From an uncultured Candidatus Poseidoniales archaeon (GTDB taxonomy: Archaea > Thermoplasmatota > Poseidoniia > Poseidoniales > Thalassarchaeaceae), in NCBI GenBank assembly GCA_964576865.1, contig CAZNVK010000008.1, positions 570 to 64,569 on the forward strand: DNA of 64,000 nt. The letters are read 5' to 3'. Positions within the stretch are counted from its first letter, which is position 1; every line of letters begins with the position of its first letter. Positions 38,293 to 60,985 of this stretch are shown in pieces. The notes under the pieces were generated by a model. That model was not told the DNA's origin. It ran no database searches and was given only the letters and a program-made list of their open reading frames with translations. The translations under genes were made by a program, and so were the position numbers.

Positions 38293-39231
38293 ATGATGGC
38301 TGATCCGAAAGCAGAAGGTGCAAGCGATACCGCTCACCTATATGATGGAAAGACGATTCGCTCGTCCGCACCCAGTCGGAAGAAGGCAGCCGGGCGTCTG
38401 AAGTCCAGCACTGAGATTCCAGAGGATGCAATTCCTGAGATTCACGTTCCATCGTGGATTGAATCCTTCTTCGGCGGTCCTATCGTGTCCTCGATGAAGT
38501 TTCTTCCTGCGAATAACACCGTCTCGACCCTACAGATGGTATCGGGTGGAATCCTCATTCTCCTCACCTTCCTCACCTTCGTCATCACCCCGGTCTCAGG
38601 AACTGCTTGGTTCAGCCTCGCCAATGCAATTAGTATGCCGATCCTCGGGGGTATCCTACACATCACCATCCTCGCGGTAGGAGCAATCGGTGGTATCTAC
38701 GGGATTTTCCAGCGCGACCAAAGGGCGCTTCTGATTTCCTATGTCGCGCTGATTCTCGTCACTCTGCGATTCGCGGGAAGCAAGGTTGAATTCGGATTGA
38801 ATCTGCTTCCAGAGGGTGAAATCGCCCAGAAATTCCTACTCATTCTCTATGCTCTCTTCCTAGTGATGTACTTTGAATTGACGAGCGGTATCATTCGCTT
38901 CTCGATGCTCGACACCTCGATACGAACCGGCGAGGTCTATGTCATGGGTGAGGGGAAGATTATCCGCCAATATCACCGCGCCATCGGAATCACTCCACTG
39001 GTCGCTGGTGCGGTTGCCCTTCTGACCCTGCTGATCAACCTCATCGTGCCAGCGATCGTTGGTATCTTCGACAGCGTTCAGGCTGCAAGGTTGAGCGAGT
39101 CTGTCGAACTGACGAGCGTGTACGGTGTCGCTATGGGAACCGCATTCGTGTTCACGATTATTGCGGCGGCATTTGCGATTAATCTGCCGCTGCGAATCCA
39201 GCAGATGCAGGAAAACCGCAGCGGCAAGTGA
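38293..39231 (+). CDS. Hypothetical polytopic membrane protein
   Basis: 312 aa with about 6-7 TM segments. Starts 7 nt after the DUF58 stop. Confidence 0.55.
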   Translation: MMADPKAEGASDTAHLYDGKTIRSSAPSRKKAAGRLKSSTEIPEDAIPEIHVPSWIESFFGGPIVSSMKFLPANNTVSTLQMVSGGILILLTFLTFVITPVSGTAWFSLANAISMPILGGILHITILAVGAIGGIYGIFQRDQRALLISYVALILVTLRFAGSKVEFGLNLLPEGEIAQKFLLILYALFLVMYFELTSGIIRFSMLDTSIRTGEVYVMGEGKIIRQYHRAIGITPLVAGAVALLTLLINLIVPAIVGIFDSVQAARLSESVELTSVYGVAMGTAFVFTIIAAAFAINLPLRIQQMQENRSGK

Positions 39232-51464: not shown

Positions 51465-52718
51465 TCAGTCTGTGAATCTGAAATCACCTGACATATCGGA
51501 CCACATCAGAGCTGTCAGAGCATTCAGTCCGGTCTGCATTCCAAGTTCGAATTGATCTCGCCCCCCGGCCAATTGGTAGAGGATATCGACTCGGTCGGTG
51601 GGCGCATGTTTTGGTGACTGTTCACAGGTATCATCTTCCTCCTGAATGAATTCGTGCATCCCGCGCATCCAAGTCGCTGGCCATCCGCGCGAGATGAAAT
51701 TGTAATGATCTGAATTCCCTTTGGTGTCGTCGAGCACCACCACCCACTCATGTGGATACTGGAGCTCGTCGTAGAGGACGCCATCCAACCACCTCCAAAG
51801 CTCGTCGGCATCCTCCCTCATCTCATCCGTCACATTCGTTCCGCGATCCTCGTAATATGACCAGTCATCGAGGGGCGAAGTGAATAGATAGAGGTGGAAG
51901 TATTCCTCGTCACAGCCGCTTAGTTGGCTGATTGGTTGAGTTTGAACCGGCCAGTTCAATCCATACATATCGAGGTTGATGTAAGTTGCAATTTCAACAC
52001 CCTCTGGAAGATTTTCAACGAAGGTCTCACTGCCATATCCTGCACCTTCAGGTGAACCTTGGCCCTGCCATTCCTCGTAATCCCAAGTGGCGAATTTCCA
52101 AGTGTGCTTTGGCTTCAAATCAATCCCTTGTTCATCAAAATAAATTTGCCATTCCTTGACCAGACGAGCGAGTTCCAACACCGAAGCAACACCGGTGGCA
52201 TCATCGTAAGCACCCTCTGAAGTACAACCGGGATACTCGATTCCGACGATAATCTGTTGCGAATAACAAATCGCATCGTAATGGCCTCCAACAACAATCC
52301 AGGAATTCGGGTCCTCACCCTCTAGAGTCGCGATGTAATTTCGACAGTCTTCGCACAATTGTGTAGTGAATTCCTGAATCTCGACCTCATATCCAAGATC
52401 CTCAAATCTGAATTGAATGAAATCACCAGCATTTGCGTGAGCGGTCGTGTCGATTTTTCTGTAGCCGAAATCGGCCAGAGTTTCGATATCATCGACAACA
52501 ATGCTCGCATTTGCCCATGTAATTGGCGGGTTATTTTCCAATTCTTCGTCAAGACTTCGCTCTGCTTGAGATAAGACCCATTCACCGAATAGAATGCCAG
52601 CCCCGATTGTGGCTGAGACGAGGATCACGACGATGGTTGTCGCGATGATTGCAACCTTGTGACGGTACTCGAGTTTGAATCCCGAACCCTCATCCTCCAC
52701 GACTATCGTGTTAGGCAT
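51465..52718 (-). CDS. M28-family metallo-aminopeptidase, membrane-anchored
   Basis: N-terminal TM. VGGHYDA, GAYDDATGVASVLELAR and EEWQGQGS metal-ligand blocks. ATG at 52718; alternative TTG at 52751. Confidence 0.8.
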   Translation of the reverse strand: MPNTIVVEDEGSGFKLEYRHKVAIIATTIVVILVSATIGAGILFGEWVLSQAERSLDEELENNPPITWANASIVVDDIETLADFGYRKIDTTAHANAGDFIQFRFEDLGYEVEIQEFTTQLCEDCRNYIATLEGEDPNSWIVVGGHYDAICYSQQIIVGIEYPGCTSEGAYDDATGVASVLELARLVKEWQIYFDEQGIDLKPKHTWKFATWDYEEWQGQGSPEGAGYGSETFVENLPEGVEIATYINLDMYGLNWPVQTQPISQLSGCDEEYFHLYLFTSPLDDWSYYEDRGTNVTDEMREDADELWRWLDGVLYDELQYPHEWVVVLDDTKGNSDHYNFISRGWPATWMRGMHEFIQEEDDTCEQSPKHAPTDRVDILYQLAGGRDQFELGMQTGLNALTALMWSDMSGDFRFTD

Positions 52719-52751
52719 TGCGCGAGAAGGCTTCTTTCTTTTGGCGGCCAA

Positions 52752-52953
52752 GGTGCATGGGACAGGGCTTCCTGTTCGGAACTTCCCTCCCTACGGTCAG
52801 TCCAGTTCCGACCTATCGCTGAATCAGAGATTCAGCTCGGTTCAAGTTTCCCTCGCTGGCGCTCAGTCCAACTTGAACCCGCCGCGCGAACGGCCGCTTC
52901 GCTTGACATCAATCAGTTCGCGCTAGGGTTCGAATCCTGTCCGCAACTGCACC
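52752..52953 (-). ncRNA. Structured noncoding element E1 (about 202 nt), function unknown
   Basis: Ends pair (GGTGCAGTTGCGGACAGG / CCTGTCCCATGCACC). Internal perfect stems:
- 52839-52848 / 52870-52879 (10 bp)
- 52818-52825 / 52829-52836 (8 bp)
- 52777-52783 / 52804-52810 (7 bp)
- 52884-52891 / 52916-52923 (8 bp)
No ORF. Strand inferred from neighbouring genes. Confidence 0.3.
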
Positions 52954-52985
52954 GCTTGAAATTGATTAATGGTGCAGGGGACAGG
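52927..52985. repeat. Copy 1 of a 59-nt repeat derived from the tRNA-Leu(CAG) 3' end and its trailer
   Basis: 58/59 identical to 53058-53116, offset 131 bp. Contains an inverted tRNA 3'-end copy, a 17-nt spacer, and the last 16 nt of the tRNA including the CCA complement. Confidence 0.9.
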
Positions 52986-53084
52986 TGATTGAAAACCACC
53001 GCTTCCCGCCTTTGGCGGTCCAGCGCCGACCTTCCGCCGAATCGAAGATTCGGCTCAGGTTCGAATCCTGTCCGCACCTGCACC
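52971..53084 (-). ncRNA. Structured noncoding element E2 (about 114 nt), function unknown
   Basis: Ends pair as 8 bp + 3-nt TGC bulge + 7 bp (GGTGCAGG-TGC-GGACAGG / CCTGTCCCCTGCACC). Internal hairpins at 53036-53054 (7 bp) and 53006-53018 (5 bp). The hairpin GGTGG-TTTTCAA-TCACC has a G-U pair only when read on the minus strand. Confidence 0.3.
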
Positions 53085-53116
53085 GCTTGAAATTGATTAA
53101 TGGTGCAGGGGACAGG
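53058..53116. repeat. Copy 2 of the 59-nt repeat (overlaps the real tRNA-Leu(CAG) 3' end)
   Basis: See copy 1. 53056-53084 is also an inverted repeat of 53102-53127 with a 3-nt GCA/TGC insertion. Confidence 0.9.
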
Positions 53117-53185
53117 ATTCGAACCTGCGAAGCACTACGCACAGCGACCTGAACGCTGCCCCTTTGACCGCTCGGGAACCCCTGC
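53101..53185 (-). tRNA. tRNA-Leu (anticodon CAG), CCA encoded
   Basis: Minus strand reads GCAGGGGTTCCCGAGCGGTCAAAGGGGCAGCGTTCAGGTCGCTGTGCGTAGTGCTTCGCAGGTTCGAATCCTGTCCCCTGCACCA. 7-bp acceptor, anticodon loop TTCAGGT, long variable arm, and GGTTCGAATCC T-arm. Confidence 0.9.
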
Positions 53186-53248
53186 TTGGGTTCCCGTCGA
53201 ACCACCCTCCATATTTCATCGTGGCGAAGGCAAATTCATCGCACTCAA

Positions 53249-53291
53249 GCGCGACAGTTCAGATTCAAGGAGGGATGGTGTAGGAGGTAGG
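53249..53291. repeat. Partial duplicate of the tRNA-Leu(TAG) 3' end plus trailer
   Basis: 39/43 identical to 53479-53521, offset 230 bp. Ends at the same tRNA position as the family-A partial copy and is followed by the same 9-mer TGATTGAAA (53292-53300). Confidence 0.85.
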
Positions 53292-53463
53292 TGATTGAAA
53301 GCTTAGTTCACCCAGCCCCACGAGATATGGAATCGATAGGATGGTTTGAGTACTACCTGCGAAGGTTTGAGAAGAAACCGTTTGAAATGCACTCCGCAGA
53401 ATCTGATTTTCAGTCCAAGCGAGATTGAATTCAATCAGCCGCTCGCGGCTCTGGAGTAGCGAA

Positions 53464-53485
53464 GTCGCGCTCTCGAGAGCGCGAC
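53464..53485 (-). terminator. Perfect 22-nt palindrome GTCGCGCTCTCGAGAGCGCGAC in the tRNA-Leu(TAG) trailer
   Basis: Begins 21 nt after the tRNA 3' end. 9-bp stem with a 4-nt loop. Could act in termination or processing. Only its distal half is kept in the duplicated copy at 53249. Confidence 0.35.
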
Positions 53486-53505
53486 AGCTCAGATTCAAGG
53501 AGTTA

Positions 53506-53590
53506 TGGTGCAGGAGGTAGGATTCGAACCTACGAAGCACTACGCACTGGGACCTAAACCCAGCCCCTTTGACCGCTCGGGTACCCCTGC
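53506..53590 (-). tRNA. tRNA-Leu (anticodon TAG), CCA encoded
   Basis: Minus strand reads GCAGGGGTACCCGAGCGGTCAAAGGGGCTGGGTTTAGGTCCCAGTGCGTAGTGCTTCGTAGGTTCGAATCCTACCTCCTGCACCA. Anticodon loop TTTAGGT and a long variable arm. Confidence 0.9.
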
Positions 53591-53694: not shown

Positions 53695-54705
53695 ATGTCA
53701 CGTATCGGCGTTCTCGGTTTGGGCAATTGGGGAACGGCCCTTTCCAAGGTGTGGTGCGAGGATGGCCACAATGTGCTTGGGTGGACGATCGAACAGGAAG
53801 TCTACGAGTCGCTAATGACCTCAAATATCAACGAGAAGTACCTTCCTGGTGATGAGATTCCAGACCTCGACGTTACGATGGAAATGTCAGATCTCACCGA
53901 TGCCTGTGAGATACTGATACTGGCTTTGCCGAGTGGCGTAATCCTCTCCGTGGTCAACGACCTGATCCCCCTGCTTCGCCCCTCCCATGTTCTGCTAGAC
54001 CTTGCTAAAGGATTGGCGCCGACAGCCGAGAGCGAGTCGGGGATGATTTCACAGGAGATCGAGGATAGGCTGGCGGCTGCCGGGAAGTCGAATCCTGTGG
54101 TGGTTCTGACCGGCCCGACGATCGCGCCGGAGGTCGCGCGCGGCGTGATGACTACAGCGGTCGTCGCCTGTCATGACAGATCGGTCGCCAATCGGATTGC
54201 TGAGAGATTGTCGACCGAGACTTTGGTGTTGACTGCGACCGATGATATCGATGGGGCTGAATTGTGGGGTGCGTACAAGAATACGGTCGCCCTTGCCTGT
54301 GGGCTGGTCGATGGCCTGCGCGGCAGTATCGGCGGTGATAATCTCAAGGCCGCGCTCGTGCTTGCTGGATTTTCTGAGGGAATAAAATTGCTGGAGGCGA
54401 TGGGGGCTGAGGCCTCGACGGCTTTTGGGCCGGCGGGGATCGGCGATCTGTACGTGACGGCGACCAGCCCGAGTTCGCGGAATCGGACTCTGGGTGAGAA
54501 ATTAGGTTCGGGCAAGTCGCTCGAAGAATCGCTCGGGGAGATGCACATGGTCGCTGAAGGCGTTCGAGCGAACCGAATGTTCCTGAATCGCGCGCGTCGG
54601 TTGGGACTCGAGGTTCCTTTCCAGCGCGCGCTGGGCGACCTGCTGTCAGGAGATGCTGAGGTCGGCGATGCTGTTCGAAGCATGGTCGAGGCTTACGAGT
54701 CCTGA
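53695..54705 (+). CDS. gpsA: NAD(P)H-dependent sn-glycerol-3-phosphate dehydrogenase (bacterial type)
   Basis: IGVLGLGNWGTAL dinucleotide fold, LAKG, GPTIAPEVA, KN(T)VALACG and RNRTLGEKLG blocks. Confidence 0.9.
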   Translation: MSRIGVLGLGNWGTALSKVWCEDGHNVLGWTIEQEVYESLMTSNINEKYLPGDEIPDLDVTMEMSDLTDACEILILALPSGVILSVVNDLIPLLRPSHVLLDLAKGLAPTAESESGMISQEIEDRLAAAGKSNPVVVLTGPTIAPEVARGVMTTAVVACHDRSVANRIAERLSTETLVLTATDDIDGAELWGAYKNTVALACGLVDGLRGSIGGDNLKAALVLAGFSEGIKLLEAMGAEASTAFGPAGIGDLYVTATSPSSRNRTLGEKLGSGKSLEESLGEMHMVAEGVRANRMFLNRARRLGLEVPFQRALGDLLSGDAEVGDAVRSMVEAYES

Positions 54706-56745: not shown

Positions 56746-57728
56746 TCGTCGTACTTCTCATCGAAGTATGCTGCGATGCCCGGGATTGCTCCGATAGCAT
56801 CGCTGTACGAGCCGAGGTGCTCCTCAGTCGTGACCTGCGAGATTCCTGGAGTGTTCAGAACACCATCGAGAATCTCGACGCCGCCTTCCTCAGTGTTCAG
56901 AGCGAGGAAAGCCTCGACGATGGCGTCGATCTTCTCCTGGCTCGTGGTCTCGGTATTGACCATCACTGGGTGGCTCGGGACCTGACCGAAGGCGGGCTCG
57001 AGAGGACGGTACTGGTCACGCTCGAGGCACCAGTCGTTTCCTTCGCAGTGGTCCTCGTAGGAAGTGGTCTTGCCGAATGCGACATCGCCGACTCCCTCTG
57101 TCATACAGCGCAAGGCACCGCTGTAGCTGTAGTAGAGGTCTCCCTTCTCAGGAATCGAGGCATTACCGAAGTGCTCCTCGATGGTTGTGCGTAGGGAAGC
57201 GATGTCATCAGCGTCTCCGCTGACATCGACGATTCCGTTGTTGATCATATATCCCATCGGCATCAGCATTCCAGCCGACTTGAGCCAGCCCGTGTGGCAG
57301 GAATCCTTGCCCTCGAGGTCCTCGAGAGACTGGATTTCCGAGTCAGCGAGGACCCAAGCCTGCGCTGTGTAGTAGGTGGTACCATCGCTCTTCTGGTCGG
57401 CCAGAATCGCATCGAGGCCGTGCTGCTTCCAGGCGATCCATGCAGCGCCTCCATCAAGGAAAGCGATGTCTGCGTGACCGAAGCGAAGAGCCTCGATTGC
57501 AGCGATGTCCGAGGTGATGGGGTAGAGCTCCACCTCGTATCCCGACTGAGCTGCGATGAAGTCAGCAAGCACCTGTGGGTTGGCTGACGGATCTTCGTAG
57601 TCGTCCTGAGTCTTGAAAGCGATTCGGATCACCTTCTCATCTTCTTCTTTCGATTCAAGGCATCCGGCCATGCCAGCGCTCAGAATCAGAGTCGCCAGCA
57701 GGGCATTCATCAACAAATTCATTCTCAT
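56742..57728 (-). CDS. Substrate-binding lipoprotein, PhnD-superfamily, with transferrin-like Fe3+/carbonate-binding motifs
   Basis: Lipobox AGC. Blocks FLDGGAAW, TYYTAQAWV, GKDSCHTGWLKSAGMLMPMG, YSYSGALRCMTEGVGDVAF and FGQVPSHPVMV parallel a transferrin lobe (see findings). Confidence 0.85.
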   Translation of the reverse strand: MRMNLLMNALLATLILSAGMAGCLESKEEDEKVIRIAFKTQDDYEDPSANPQVLADFIAAQSGYEVELYPITSDIAAIEALRFGHADIAFLDGGAAWIAWKQHGLDAILADQKSDGTTYYTAQAWVLADSEIQSLEDLEGKDSCHTGWLKSAGMLMPMGYMINNGIVDVSGDADDIASLRTTIEEHFGNASIPEKGDLYYSYSGALRCMTEGVGDVAFGKTTSYEDHCEGNDWCLERDQYRPLEPAFGQVPSHPVMVNTETTSQEKIDAIVEAFLALNTEEGGVEILDGVLNTPGISQVTTEEHLGSYSDAIGAIPGIAAYFDEKYDE

Positions 57729-57924
57729 TTATTCACTTCCATTTCAGGGTTCGTCGTATTTCCGACGAGGCGCGCGACCGACCATCTCGATATATAGTTT
57801 AGGCTGCCCTAAACTTCTCGGTTTTCGCTATACTAAAAGCCTACAATTAGAAATTCAAGCGCATGAACACGCCTCCGACAAGCAGCCGATAGCCATATCG
57901 TGCGCGAGGCTCCCGTCGAAGCAC

Positions 57925-59928
57925 ATGACTCGCGATGATGCCCTACGCTTCGCAGTCCTCCTGACCATGTTCGCCATGGTCACATCGTGGGTTCCGATGA
58001 GCGCACCCGATCATCAATTACAGGAATTTGACGAGCGTCGAGAACAACTCGGAGGAGACGGCCCGACGCTCGAAGAACAATGCAGCTCGATCACCTTCGA
58101 GGACATGTTCGAGTACTCGAAGGCGATCTTCGATATACAGGTCGCAAACGATTGGAACTCTGCCCAAGTTGGAGCGGTGGCGTGGATCAACGGAAGTCTT
58201 TCCGACGAAGTTCGGCAGAAGTTGGACGAATATGTCGCAGCGGTTTATCCCAGTGGGGACGATGGATGGATCTCCACAGATGAGAGAGAGGGAGTTCGAG
58301 CGATTGCCTCAGAGTGCGTTCAACACACCCTAACCCGACTCGGTATGCGCGACGGCAGCCCTCACAGGGGGGGAGAGGGAACCGATTGGAAGAACGTCAG
58401 TTGGACCGAGGACGAGGTTCTGGTCGAGGAGTGGAACCTCGTCCCGCCTCGCCATTCAGAGATTCGGGATTGCAGTGGCTTCGGCAGCAGCAGCGACTGC
58501 GTCGAGGTGCCTGTTGAGCCGGCGAGTGAGAGGGATTGCGATACCGATATCGACGCGTCAGCTGGTGCTGATGAGTGCCGAATGACGCTGTGGCTCAATG
58601 CGACGATGACAATTTCTCATCTCAATGACCCGAATGAGTTCACAGTGGCGTTCAATGCCTCGAATATGTCGAATGTCGAGTATCACATCACCTTCCCGCA
58701 GACGGATGGATTGAGGCTCGACATGTGGGAGGAATGCGAGGGTCGAGATGTCGAGGCGGCGGTTGGCGATTATGCGGGCGAGGCCCCGATTCGAGGCAGT
58801 TGTGTCGGCGATGGTTCAAGCTCTTACGAAATCGCCGAGAACGAGGATGGTAGTCTGACCTACTCCTTCTACCCTGAGATGCCGTACTGGCCTATCGGTG
58901 AGGATCTATTCGCCGATTTCACAACCGCGCCGATTCCTGTGGATGAGCCGCCGGAGTGGACCGATGCTGCTCCGGCGGATGGCGCATGGTTCCCGCGCGC
59001 GAGCGGGGGTTCGCAAGTTATTGCTGATTGGAACAGCATCCAGAATTGGTTCGTCGACGAGGCAGGTGTTGCTTCGCTAGAAGTCGTTTGCCGCGGCGAT
59101 GCTGGATTGGATGTGGCCTATGAGGATCGTGAGATTTCGATGGATGTACCCCGTGGCCAGGCCGGCGAGGTGACTTGTGAGGCGATTGACCGAGCCGACC
59201 AATCATCTGGCAGCCGGACTTGGAATGTCGGTGTTCCATTCCAGATATCCACCTCTACCACGGATTTGGCCGACCCTCACCCAATCACACTGAGTCCGAC
59301 CTCGGGTTGGCCTGAATTGAGTGTCGAGATTGGATTCACATCCGAACATGGTGGCAGCGCTACCTACTCGGGTCCTTTCTCACTCTACATGTCCGAAATC
59401 ACAGTGGACGTGGCGGCTGGCGGTACTGTTCCTGGCACTGCCTACGTTGTGGTTCGCGTGACAGGGGACGAAGTCTACTCGATGCTGGCAACCTACGACT
59501 TGGGGATTGAGAAGGCTAGCAGCGCACCGATTGTGACAGTCAATAGTGAGGGTTGGGACGGTAGTTCTTGGTCGATGAGCGGGCAATTCTCCGACCCTGA
59601 TGGGGAGGCGGTCTCATTCACTCTGCTCATCGATGGCTCGGCGGTAGGCGAGGTCAGCGTCAGCGGTAATAATTGGGCGACTCCGGCCATTGATTTCTCA
59701 GTCTGGGCTGAGGGAACTCACACGGTTCAGGTCGATGCATGCGATGATTCTGGCATGTGCGTGAATCAGCAAAGAATCGTCGATAATTCTCACCTCTTCG
59801 CCGAGCCTGAGCCCGAGCCTGGAGACATTGAGGAACCTCAACCCCTTCCTGGATTGCCTGCCATGGGGCTCGGTGGACTACTCGCCGCGGCATCTGCCGC
59901 ACTCATATACTCGGGCCGACGCGACTGA
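57925..59928 (+). CDS. Large acidic cell-surface protein with PGF-CTERM-like tail
   Basis: Signal/TM at the N-terminus ([19 protein letters not shown]) and C-terminus [27 protein letters not shown]. The ORF formally opens at 57613, but that part overlaps the divergent gene. Confidence 0.65.
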
Positions 59929-59932
59929 GAAC

Positions 59933-60985
59933 ATGAGCTTCTCCGGGACGGTCGAGAAGGAGTCCCATGAGGGTGGTCTGATGATCGCTTTCGAGGGCAA
60001 GGCGCCTCGATTGGGTGCCACGCTTCGAATCATCGGCGGCAAGCCGATTGGACGCGTGAATACGGTGATTGGCGCCGTCGACCGAGCTCTGATTCACATT
60101 CATCCTGTCGCCGATGACATCGATGCAATTAGCGCGGTCGGTTCTCCTGTCGAAATCGCTCCGCGCGAGCGTCGCGATCGCTCCGACCGTGGCCGAGGAC
60201 GCTACGATCGTCGCGAGGGCGGCCGAGGTCGCGATGGTGGCAGATACCAGAGTCGTGAGAATCGTGGATTCGACCGCCGCAATGACCGCCGAGACAATCG
60301 CGGCGGCAACCGCGGAGGAGATTGGGATTGCCCCAAGTGCAAGAACAACAACTTCGCCTTCCGCGACAAGTGCAATCGCTGCGATGCTGAGCGCCCAGAA
60401 GGCGCCGGAAGCAGCAGCGGACACGGCGGACAGCGTGGCGGCGGCAAATTCCAGCGCCGCGATGACCGCGGCTTCGACCGCCGCAATGACCGCGGTGGCA
60501 GGGACTTCCGCGACAACCGCGGTCGAGATCGAGGCGGGCGCGACAACAAAGAAGGTCGAAGTGGGGACTGGGATTGCCCCAAGTGCAAGAACAACAATTT
60601 CGCCTTCCGCGACAAGTGCAACCGCTGCGATGCAAGCCGCCCTAGCGGAGGTGGCAGCAGCGGCGGCAGCCGTGGAGGCAACCGCGGAGGACGTGACAGT
60701 CGTGGCGGCGGAGACCGCAGAGATTCACGCGGCGGAGACCGCAGAGATAACCGGGGCGGAGACCGAGGCGGAAGCCGCGGAGGCGACCGTGGAGGACGCA
60801 GCGGCGGTGACCGCAGAGATTCGCGTGGCGGTGATAGACGCGGCCCTCGCCCAGGACCTCGCGACGGACCGGACAGGGGACGTTCACCTGGAAGCGGTAG
60901 CAAGCCGCGACGCCCAGGATTCCGCGGAGGCGGAAGGGGCGGCCCAAGCCGCAACCGACCAGGGCGCGGCAGCGGACGCCGCTGA
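59933..60985 (+). CDS. Gar1-like beta-barrel protein fused to two RanBP2-type zinc fingers and RGG/RG-rich low-complexity regions
   Basis: N-terminal [43 protein letters not shown] resembles the H/ACA RNP Gar1 core. It carries two copies of [24 protein letters not shown] (W-x-C-x2-C-x3-N-x6-C-x2-C). The remainder is RGG/RDxRGG repeats. Confidence 0.7.
60323..60387 (+). repeat. Zinc-finger coding repeat, copy 1
   Basis: 65 nt, 63/65 identical to 60569-60633 (offset 246 nt). Confidence 0.9.
60569..60633 (+). repeat. Zinc-finger coding repeat, copy 2
   Basis: See copy 1. Confidence 0.9.

Follow-up and report, generated by a model that had tools for sequence, protein, structure and literature searches.

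What stands between a tRNA-Leu(CAG) gene and the peptidase gene that follows it is the question raised by one stretch of archaeal DNA, 64,000 nucleotides (nt) long and here called the window, from an uncultured Candidatus Poseidoniales archaeon (contig CAZNVK010000008.1). Behind the tRNA lie two segments, E2 and E1, in which copies of the tRNA's own 3' end recur, and an earlier note, made from the window alone, had offered three readings of them: tRNA-like processing handles, scars of recombination into tRNA-Leu, or an attenuator-like trailer. The best reading is that the region is a pile-up of non-coding insertion modules at two tRNA-Leu 3' ends of a Marine Group IIb archaeon. Such modules would be small and non-autonomous, would insert or recombine at tRNA-Leu 3' ends, and would pile up there in tandem, an account that we hold to be reasonably probable. 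We use "module" for an insert read in the tRNA sense; the tRNA genes and modules of the window are all on the minus strand.

How the region is built can be read from the order of its copies. In the tRNA sense, tRNA-Leu(CAG) ends in ...CCTGTCCCCTGCACCA and is followed by a linker (TTAATCAATTTCAAGC), by an inverted copy of tRNA sequence that we call a', by a 72-nt body, and by a second CCTGTCCCCTGCACCA. Next come the linker and a' once more, a body of 160 nt, and CCTGTCCCATGCACC, and then the peptidase leader. The order makes E2 and E1 two inserts bracketed by 16-nt direct copies of the tRNA end, called a. The features are these, with body types A1 to A3 as defined below for the whole family:

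53101-53185, minus strand: tRNA-Leu(CAG), found by ARAGORN and by the Rfam tRNA model (47.3 bits)
53101-53116, minus strand: direct repeat a, copy 1, the last 16 nt of tRNA-Leu(CAG), CCTGTCCCCTGCACCA in the tRNA sense
53085-53100, minus strand: linker 1, the first 16 nt of E2, TTAATCAATTTCAAGC; all other modules have related linkers
53058-53084, minus strand: a' of E2, the inverted T-arm and acceptor 3' strand with a TGC insertion; pairing reaches 53056
52986-53057, minus strand: body of E2, type A1, from folds and from alignment and pair counts with four homologous modules
53036-53054, 52999-53027, and 52984-53000, minus strand: hairpin 1, hairpin 2, and T-arm-like hairpin of the E2 body, from folds
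52970-52985, minus strand: direct repeat a, copy 2, which closes E2 and is identical to the tRNA end at 16/16 positions
52954-52969, minus strand: linker 2, the start of E1, identical to linker 1
52927-52953, minus strand: a' of E1, GGTGCAGTTGCGGACAGGATTCGAACC, one base off a' of E2
52839-52926, minus strand: tRNA-proximal body of E1, type A3, with hairpins GCGCGAAC...GTTCGCGC and GGTTCAAGTT...AAACTTGAACC
52767-52838, minus strand: distal body of E1, a type A2 remnant without an a' of its own, from a covariance model and motif search
52818-52836, minus strand: hairpin of the distal body, GCTGAATC-AGA-GATTCAGC as written on the plus strand, accompanied by CGGAAC...GTTCCG, from motif search
52752-52766, minus strand: direct repeat a, copy 3, the outermost one and the least like the tRNA end (14/15), 33 nt upstream of the peptidase start codon

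The repeats described earlier were recovered almost as proposed. A 59-nt direct repeat turned out to be the core of a longer one (52922-52985 versus 53053-53116; 64 nt, 95% identity by repeat finder), and the inverted copy of the T-arm and acceptor strand is perfect over 18 nt (53056-53073 versus 53110-53127) and extends past the 3-nt TGC insertion to 53084/53102. The tRNA-end motif GGTGCAKGGGACAGG occurs three times (at 52752, 52971, and 53102) versus 0.17 times expected from dinucleotide shuffles, bearing out the diverged third copy that the earlier note had seen at 52752-52766. In two relatives, L002 and L339, an orthologous last copy sits at the same junction. The linker, GCTTGAAATTGATTAA, has two exact copies and measures 16 nt, not the 17 nt first given for the spacer. 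When paired with the tRNA arm, a' of E2 forms a hairpin of -48.6 kcal/mol (z -9.5). Moreover, E2 and E1 are each closed by a helix with a bulge, as the earlier note had predicted, and take a multi-hairpin shape on both strands, with folds far below those of dinucleotide shuffles (z on the two strands, -4.8/-5.4 for E2 and -3.6/-5.1 for E1).

Whether each segment is a single element has a different answer for each. E2 is one intact module, and a covariance model built from five A1 modules matches it at 52970-53084 with 116.9 bits. E1, taken earlier as a single element too, is by its sequence a chimera of two older module fragments, since its proximal half is of type A3 and its distal half of type A2. 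From the end of the linker through a' and the proximal body, E1 agrees at about 87% over 102 aligned nt with a module behind tRNA-Leu(CAA) in the metagenome-assembled genome (MAG) BH13 (L163), and the two proximal bodies differ by compensatory stem changes. The distal body resembles the BH13 module behind tRNA-Leu(TAG) and is matched by the covariance model at 52758-52852 (38.8 bits, E 4e-6). Neither segment is strictly free of open reading frames (ORFs), as had been claimed: mechanically called ORFs of 56 to 109 amino acids (aa) overlap both. The two longest of these (109 and 79 aa) have no Pfam match, and the modules are without coding capacity.

The same unit recurs in other Marine Group II (MGII) archaea. 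It opens with an AT-rich linker of 15 to 17 nt ending in ..AAGC or ..CAGC; then come a', in which about 22 to 27 nt of the tRNA's T-arm and acceptor 3' strand are repeated in inverted form, and a set of two or three hairpins. It closes with a, a direct copy of the 16 terminal nt of the tRNA, from the T-stem 3' strand through CCA. Modules are about 110 to 130 base pairs (bp) long, with about 105 to 115 bp from a' to a. They are found behind four tRNA-Leu isoacceptors (CAG, TAG, TAA, and CAA) in at least four MGII lineages. BH13 carries modules behind tRNA-Leu(TAG), tRNA-Leu(TAA), and tRNA-Leu(CAA) on three separate contigs, relatives L335 to L338 carry one behind tRNA-Leu(TAG), and relatives L339 to L343 carry one behind a hybrid tRNA. 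In F8MGII_1 (L196), a distantly related Poseidoniales MAG, two units of this architecture stand in tandem, with an unrelated AT-rich body. In L015 and L178 only remnants are left, a linker with a short stretch complementary to the acceptor strand. In L002, L083, L339, E2, and L196 the direct repeat measures 16 nt, or up to 20 nt with flanking matches; in L335 and L163 it is truncated.

Bodies fall into types that cross loci. Type A1, found in E2, L083, L335, and L339, has a hairpin GCCGAATC-NNN-GATTCGGC, a GCGC..CCGCC hairpin, and the T-arm-like hairpin. Type A2, found in the BH13 tRNA-Leu(TAG) module and distal E1, has the first hairpin of A1 and then a GGAAC..GTTCC hairpin, and type A3 is that of the BH13 tRNA-Leu(CAA) module (L163) and proximal E1. 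A1 modules thus stand behind tRNA-Leu(CAG) in the window, tRNA-Leu(TAA) in BH13 (L083), and tRNA-Leu(TAG) or the hybrid tRNA in L335 and L339, at unlinked loci. Recombination into tRNA-Leu is the best supported of the three readings first offered, but the modules are more than passive scars, because the same structured types lie behind four tRNA-Leu genes at unlinked loci. In BH13, the TAG module (L002, reverse complement) and the TAA module (L083:5609-5660) share an identical 38 nt, ATTCGAACCCTAGCCGAATCTGTGATTCGGCGGTGGGT, and then diverge completely, which suggests, at the level of sequence, an exchange between modules within one genome.

The inverted copy follows the tRNA beside it. In seven of eight modules, a' matches the type of its own adjacent tRNA: the tRNA end CCTGTCC goes with GGACAGG in the window, CCTACC with GGTAGG in BH13 and L335, CCCATCC with GGATGGG at the BH13 TAA locus, and CCTGCCG with CGGCAGG at the BH13 CAA locus. 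The exception is L339, where a TAG-type a' adjoins a CAG-type tRNA end. The tRNA-Leu there (L339:2029-2113; same sequence in L341) has a TAG anticodon with the T-arm and acceptor 3' strand of tRNA-Leu(CAG), and by its sequence it looks like a hybrid from recombination between two tandem tRNA-Leu genes.

How far the family extends was asked by several searches. Over 85 MGII sources (0.69 Mb in total), the covariance model recovered every module, including distal E1 and the F8 module, and nothing beyond the known ones. Motif searches of the 64-kb window gave no further copies. A genome scan for any ...ACCA followed by a linker and an inverted T loop gave only chance or bacterial matches among those listed, and a metagenome scan with the hairpin-1 pattern gave three chance matches in unrelated sequence. 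The restriction to tRNA-Leu holds as far as these scans go, two of the three informative ones having been built on the tRNA-Leu acceptor end. Literature searches turned up no description of such modules.

When the modules arrived is indicated by empty and filled alleles. Among assemblies in one 90%-identity peptidase cluster, alignment of the syntenic loci showed empty, one-module, and multi-module alleles. Six alleles are empty (L334, L346, L347, L348, L355, and L356), with 90 nt between tRNA-TAG and tRNA-CAG and 65 nt between tRNA-CAG and the peptidase; L356 belongs to the MAG that also contains L001, and the gpsA of L001 is 96% identical to that of the window. L335 to L338 hold one A1 module and have lost tRNA-CAG, L339 to L343 hold A1 and an insert B, BH13 (L002) holds A2 and B, and the window holds B', E2, and E1. 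The module region differs by large indels among close relatives, and intergenic length runs from 347 to 977 bp across the cluster. At tRNA-TAG, BH13 and the window make a filled/empty pair with a 16- to 17-nt tRNA-end duplication: BH13 has the module and a second CCTACCTCCTGCACCA, and then the trailer that directly adjoins the tRNA in the window. Other species-level relatives have no full modules at the gpsA locus, and L015 has short trailer remnants only. Neither tRNA genes nor the native spacers of the empty allele resemble the module bodies, and in the window as in BH13 divergence is greatest in the outermost repeat copy. We conclude that the modules are recent, polymorphic for presence and absence, and arranged in tandem with decay. 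An attenuator-like trailer competing with tRNA folding, the third reading of the earlier note, is not borne out, as the modules are missing from most relatives with the same flanking genes.

A further insert, B', lies behind the second tRNA gene of the window:

53506-53590, minus strand: tRNA-Leu(TAG), found by ARAGORN and Rfam; its last 16 nt are 53506-53521
53292-53505, minus strand: insert B', 214 nt, behind tRNA-Leu(TAG)
53276-53291 and 53248-53275, minus strand: displaced tRNA-Leu(TAG) end (15/16) and native trailer, followed by the tRNA-Leu(CAG) promoter region

B' opens with a 28-nt copy of the native trailer (53478-53505) and contains a degenerate a' at 53343-53360, and its end, TTTCAATCA, resembles that of E2. 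The 16 terminal nt of tRNA-Leu(TAG) and 28 nt of trailer together form a direct repeat of 44 nt (53248-53291 versus 53478-53521, 91%), which the earlier note had not mentioned, and a 186-nt insert (53292-53477) lies between its copies. The copy at 53248-53291 is orthologous to the trailer of the empty allele L334; B' is missing from empty alleles and present in L339 and L002. B' and its 44-nt duplication are the same phenomenon as E2 and E1. On the insertion reading, B' is a decayed insert older than both.

How a module would arrive and spread can be outlined. It would enter exactly behind the CCA end and come to be followed, on the side away from the tRNA, by a second copy of the 16-nt tRNA end. 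Either a staggered cut that is then filled in, the casposon route, or exchange at an att core, the route of tyrosine integrases, would have this outcome. With the tRNA end still intact, further modules would insert there and displace earlier ones outward, to decay and recombine; E2 would then be the youngest and intact, E1 a fusion of two older modules, and B' older still. Since the modules encode nothing, they would need either an enzyme encoded elsewhere that moves them in trans or ectopic recombination that spreads them between tRNA-Leu loci. We propose that a' belongs to the element and that gene conversion between the two arms of the a-linker-a' palindrome would match it to the tRNA, whose arm selection would hold fixed; L339 would be a recent recombinant in which a' is not yet converted. 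Repeats that carry the sequence of each local isoacceptor favor target duplication, and the 44-nt repeat around B' and the mosaic modules favor homology-based exchange. The inverted copy is explained by neither staggered-cut transposition nor att-core exchange.

Several observations weigh against insertion by mobile modules. A Pfam scan that took in the called ORFs from 36970 to 63454 with a length of 120 aa or more (18 proteins), along with the two overlapping ORFs above, found no integrase, transposase, Cas1, or reverse transcriptase, and no such recombination gene stood in the flanks of the other loci inspected, including the ORFs of L196. Four scans of viral contigs, for the a-linker-a' hairpin, the tRNA-Leu end, the module right end, and hairpin 2, gave nothing relevant and no larger element sharing module ends. 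Terminal inverted repeats are weak at best, with about 5 to 6 matches in 9 to 10 AT-rich positions by eye when the left end is set against the reverse complement of the right. Repeat length varies: B' is bracketed by 44 nt instead of 16, and the tandem modules have a repeat of 64 nt. The direct repeat and a' follow the local tRNA at isoacceptor-variable positions, which a fixed element-borne att site does not predict, and the inverted copy is left unexplained by plain target duplication. An ordinary excised double-stranded element could not form a circle as small as about 130 bp. Finally, compensatory changes preserve the pairing of the internal hairpins, and the tRNA-sense strand contains G-U pairs.

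The last of these points leads to the explanation that survives best after insertion, which we regard as possible but unlikely: that the modules are tRNA-like processing elements or small RNAs, akin to t-elements and cotranscribed with tRNA-Leu. RNase P and tRNase Z, or the 3'-end machinery, would cut at the borders and release RNAs of about 110 nt; alternatively, cleavage would set the 5' end of the downstream peptidase mRNA, and an insertional origin could coexist with either. The closing a'/a helix, with ACCA at its end, is equivalent to the T stem of tRNA-Leu with the acceptor stem stacked on it. In E2 it reads GGUGCAGG(UGC)GGACAGG / CCUGUCCCCUGCACC-A (8 bp, a 3-nt bulge, and 7 bp), and like helices, 12 to 15 bp in all and ending in ACCA, occur in L083, L339, and L196. 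Both module borders are the position just past a CCA, and a last tRNA-end copy is always found immediately upstream of the peptidase 5' region. In the five A1 modules taken together, 97.3% of cells hold a pair, and six pairs have changed on both sides; internal helices not copied from the tRNA contain three of the six. The fold of the consensus favors the tRNA sense (-55.3 versus -46.8 kcal/mol), the strand on which the G-U pairs occur. Kept pairing and G-U pairs point to selection on structure, possibly at the RNA level, and plant mitochondrial t-elements are a precedent for tRNA-like end formation (PMC1920247).

Other observations count against this explanation. The covariation comes from five related sequences, whose relatedness can inflate it, and a tRNA-end copy beside the old trailer is an automatic product of insertion with duplication. 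Which hairpins are present varies among types A1, A2, A3, and F8, leaving no single conserved RNA, and most MGIIb relatives, the closest included, lack modules. A canonical T loop is not conserved: the T-arm-like hairpin has a noncanonical loop (GGUGG-UUUUCAA-UCACC in E2; UGGGA-UUCAAUC-UCCCA in L083) that is unpaired in the consensus fold, and the hairpin is missing from the A2, A3, and F8 modules. The modules appear in no RNA run, and the two oligo-dT RNA runs that touch the region (X16 and X17) cover tRNA bodies only. Rfam, at gathering and permissive thresholds, accepted only two tRNAs and offered no family for the modules, in line with the earlier failure to place them in one. The best match of an Rfam tRNA model to E2 was tRNA-Sec at 15.5 bits (gathering threshold 47, E 8.3), and matches to microRNA families arise from the long hairpin only. 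ARAGORN, by default or with introns allowed, called no tRNA in the modules, and lowered thresholds gave inconsistent calls. Release by the splicing endonuclease, one of the handles first suggested, finds no support: the bulges lie on one strand only, and a bulge-helix-bulge motif (two 3-nt bulges on opposite strands of a 4-bp helix) was not found in the predicted closing helices. Compensatory changes in the internal hairpins nonetheless leave a tRNA-like, t-element-like RNA role of the modules possible on the predicted folds.

Rather less probable is that the modules were never mobile themselves and are passive remnants, the attL- and attR-side arms, of an internally deleted provirus, plasmid, or Charybdis-like element that had integrated into tRNA-Leu by a tyrosine integrase. 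Att sites classically show as direct repeats of a tRNA 3' end, the 44 nt repeated around B' recall long att identities, and the mosaic modules have a common 5' half and differing 3' halves. Integrase-bearing elements are reported beside tRNA genes in Poseidoniales, as is tandem accretion at tRNA-Leu in Methanosarcina. Independent deletions, however, would not give modules of one length and one build at four or more loci as well as in a distant genome. Neither the viral contigs nor any locus examined yielded a full-length relative with such ends, and the repeats match each local tRNA, not a shared attP.

Doubtful, and a shade more so, is a tRNA-mimicking element, selfish or domesticated, that is excised at both CCA ends as an RNA of about 110 to 130 nt. 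Such an RNA would be cotranscribed with tRNA-Leu, cut by tRNA-processing enzymes, and left carrying the acceptor/T-stem top half of tRNA-Leu. Perhaps it would serve as a decoy or handle for leucyl-tRNA synthetase, the CCA-adding enzyme, or RNase P, or make the 5' end of the downstream mRNA. Alternatively, it might be the intermediate by which a module is copied to other tRNA-Leu genes.

Purely local rearrangement, by slippage, fold-back priming, or unequal crossing-over between tandem tRNA-Leu genes and palindromic T-arms, is highly improbable. The locus is recombinogenic, as the L339 hybrid tRNA, the loss of tRNA-CAG in several relatives, and the 64-nt repeat of 95% attest, and palindromes invite template switching. 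But homologous bodies at unlinked loci (L083 and L163) and in another genome (L196) largely refute it, and the bodies are unlike both tRNA genes and the spacers of empty alleles.

Mis-joined reads of two similar tRNA-Leu genes, an artefact that the earlier note had kept in view and that the many MAG contigs breaking within these genes might suggest, have a negligible chance of accounting for the elements, since the repeats are reproduced in independent assemblies. Seven seawater metagenome DNA runs from at least four studies contain the module region, and Logan unitigs of six runs (X1 to X4, X6, and X7) matched 52500-52976 and 52956-53107 with 0 differences. E1 is exact in separate Logan contigs, L349 and L350, and single modules with unique flanks are spanned by independent ENA, JGI, and NCBI assemblies, which together with the exact unitigs refutes an artefact for the elements themselves. 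The tandem order of E2 and E1 depends on a 32-nt exact repeat, and Logan contigs encoding the exact gpsA protein stop at the tRNA. Contig L351 differs from the window at 2 bases within the inverted copy of E1. It encodes an identical peptidase protein and starts within the linker; over L351:1-40 its inverted copy is GGTGCAGGTGCGGACAGGATTCAAACC, and one of the two differences agrees with the inverted copy of E2. It may be a strain variant or another module arrangement.

Contigs of many MGII MAGs end inside tRNA-Leu genes (L001, L007, L009, L031, L047, L051, L060, L065, and L078). In L018, L040, and L062, runs of N start in the T loop; we rejected these as T-loop insertions, as they are gaps or masks. 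Two similar tRNA-Leu genes with variable trailers are a general assembly break point in MGII MAGs.

Further candidates were set aside. By eye, E2 and E1 have no similarity to the reverse complement of a tRNA past the T arm, as a decayed inverted tRNA-Leu gene would, and no consistent motifs of a C/D box, a T-box-like element, or a leader peptide. An integron attC site would share the bulged imperfect palindrome, but there is no GTTRRRY core, gene cassette, or integrase. A CRISPR array does not fit three repeat copies with related "spacers" and no cas genes among the scanned ORFs. As tRNA genes, the modules fall below the threshold of Rfam RF00005 and clan CL00001, which only the two tRNA-Leu genes pass. 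As MITEs (miniature inverted-repeat transposable elements), they have inverted termini that are only copies of the local tRNA end, no dispersed copies in the window, and a position always behind tRNA-Leu.

The genes around the modules are ordinary. On one side they are flanked by an M28 peptidase gene (51465-52718, minus strand), and the other flanking gene is gpsA (53695-54705, plus strand), whose 80 best relatives all come from Marine Group IIb/Thalassarchaeaceae MAGs. The other ORFs scanned are ordinary chromosomal genes, such as those of the shikimate pathway, ABC transporters, and S-adenosylhomocysteine hydrolase. Two long ORFs, at 57670-59928 (752 aa) and 38293-39231 (312 aa), have no Pfam match. 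Degenerate tandem repeats at 60220-60800, with units of 24 to 32 nt and of about 204 to 246 nt, fall within an ORF (59933-60985) that matches a RanBP-type zinc-ribbon family. At three relatives' loci (L352 to L354, locus positions about 1900-2620), where the peptidase is a 456-aa form, a very large MopE-like (Cu-binding) gene replaces the tRNAs and gpsA upstream of the peptidase; the native tRNA-CAG trailer is reduced there to its last ~35 nt, from ..ATCATCAATTCCGCCC to the start codon.

Why such modules matter follows from their host. Marine Group II is among the most abundant planktonic archaea, is uncultured, and has mobile elements and non-coding RNAs that are barely known. If a site-specific enzyme moves the modules, it would define a recombination system that targets the segment of a tRNA from T stem to CCA. 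If, alternatively, RNAs are processed from the modules, organellar t-elements would have a counterpart in an archaeal chromosome. In practice, they account for the breaks of MGII assemblies at tRNA-Leu genes and are a fast-evolving marker for strain typing.

How the modules compare with known systems can be considered one system at a time. In Methanosarcina, casposons and integrase elements stack at tRNA-Leu 3' ends, with 14-bp target duplications and solo remnants (PMC4779613, PMC6977970). The modules are like Methanosarcina casposons in their tRNA-Leu 3' target, tandem stacking, gene-less remnants, and strain-variable presence. The target duplication, 14 bp in the casposons, is of similar size, 16 bp, in five modules, but the repeat is 44 nt around B' and 64 nt where modules are in tandem. 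Unlike casposons, they have no convincing terminal inverted repeats, and no casposase or PolB was seen among the scanned ORFs (at least 120 aa, 36970-63454). The module duplication lies wholly inside the tRNA, from the T-stem 3' strand through CCA, whereas that of the casposon overlaps the last 4 bp of the tRNA, and the modules, about 110 to 130 bp long, carry an inverted target copy, of which casposons carry none.

Integrase-based systems are a second comparison. Sublocation classes of tyrosine-integrase att sites within tRNA genes were reportedly set out by Williams in 2002, and the cis-mobilizable elements (CIMEs) of streptococcal integrative and conjugative elements have att sites and no integrase. 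The modules resemble att scars and CIMEs in direct repeats of the tRNA 3' end that begin at the border of T loop and T stem, in tandem accretion, and in having no integrase. Unlike those, their repeats vary with the local isoacceptor and do not share one attP, neither a gene nor a fragment of an integrase lies nearby, they are far smaller than described CIMEs, and the a-linker-a' palindrome is not a described att architecture. Integrase-bearing Charybdis elements adjoin tRNA genes in Poseidoniales (bioRxiv 10.1101/2025.08.03.668216).

Among RNA elements, a tRNA-like element upstream of 5S rRNA in Haloferax is cut by tRNase Z, and mascRNA is also tRNA-like. Like t-elements, the modules have an acceptor plus T-stem mimic helix and an ACCA end, lie between a tRNA and a downstream gene, and are putative substrates of RNase P and tRNase Z. 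Unlike t-elements, they have a multi-hairpin insert in place of the T loop and are insertions that vary between strains instead of processing signals that are conserved. The t-elements themselves are those of plant mitochondria (PMC1920247).

Target duplications of MITEs are usually a few bp long, and the 16 nt of the modules is above that. Like MITEs and palindrome-associated transposable elements (PATEs), the modules are small, non-coding, highly structured, and non-autonomous, with several related copies per genome. Unlike them, they are found only behind tRNA-Leu and always in one orientation, and their "terminal repeats" are target copies. Both groups are known from prokaryotes (MITEs and PATEs, review PMC10969869; PATEs, PMC3119063). 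Ultimately, the modules are best taken as a family of small, structured insertions that, as far as the searches reached, lie only at tRNA-Leu 3' ends.

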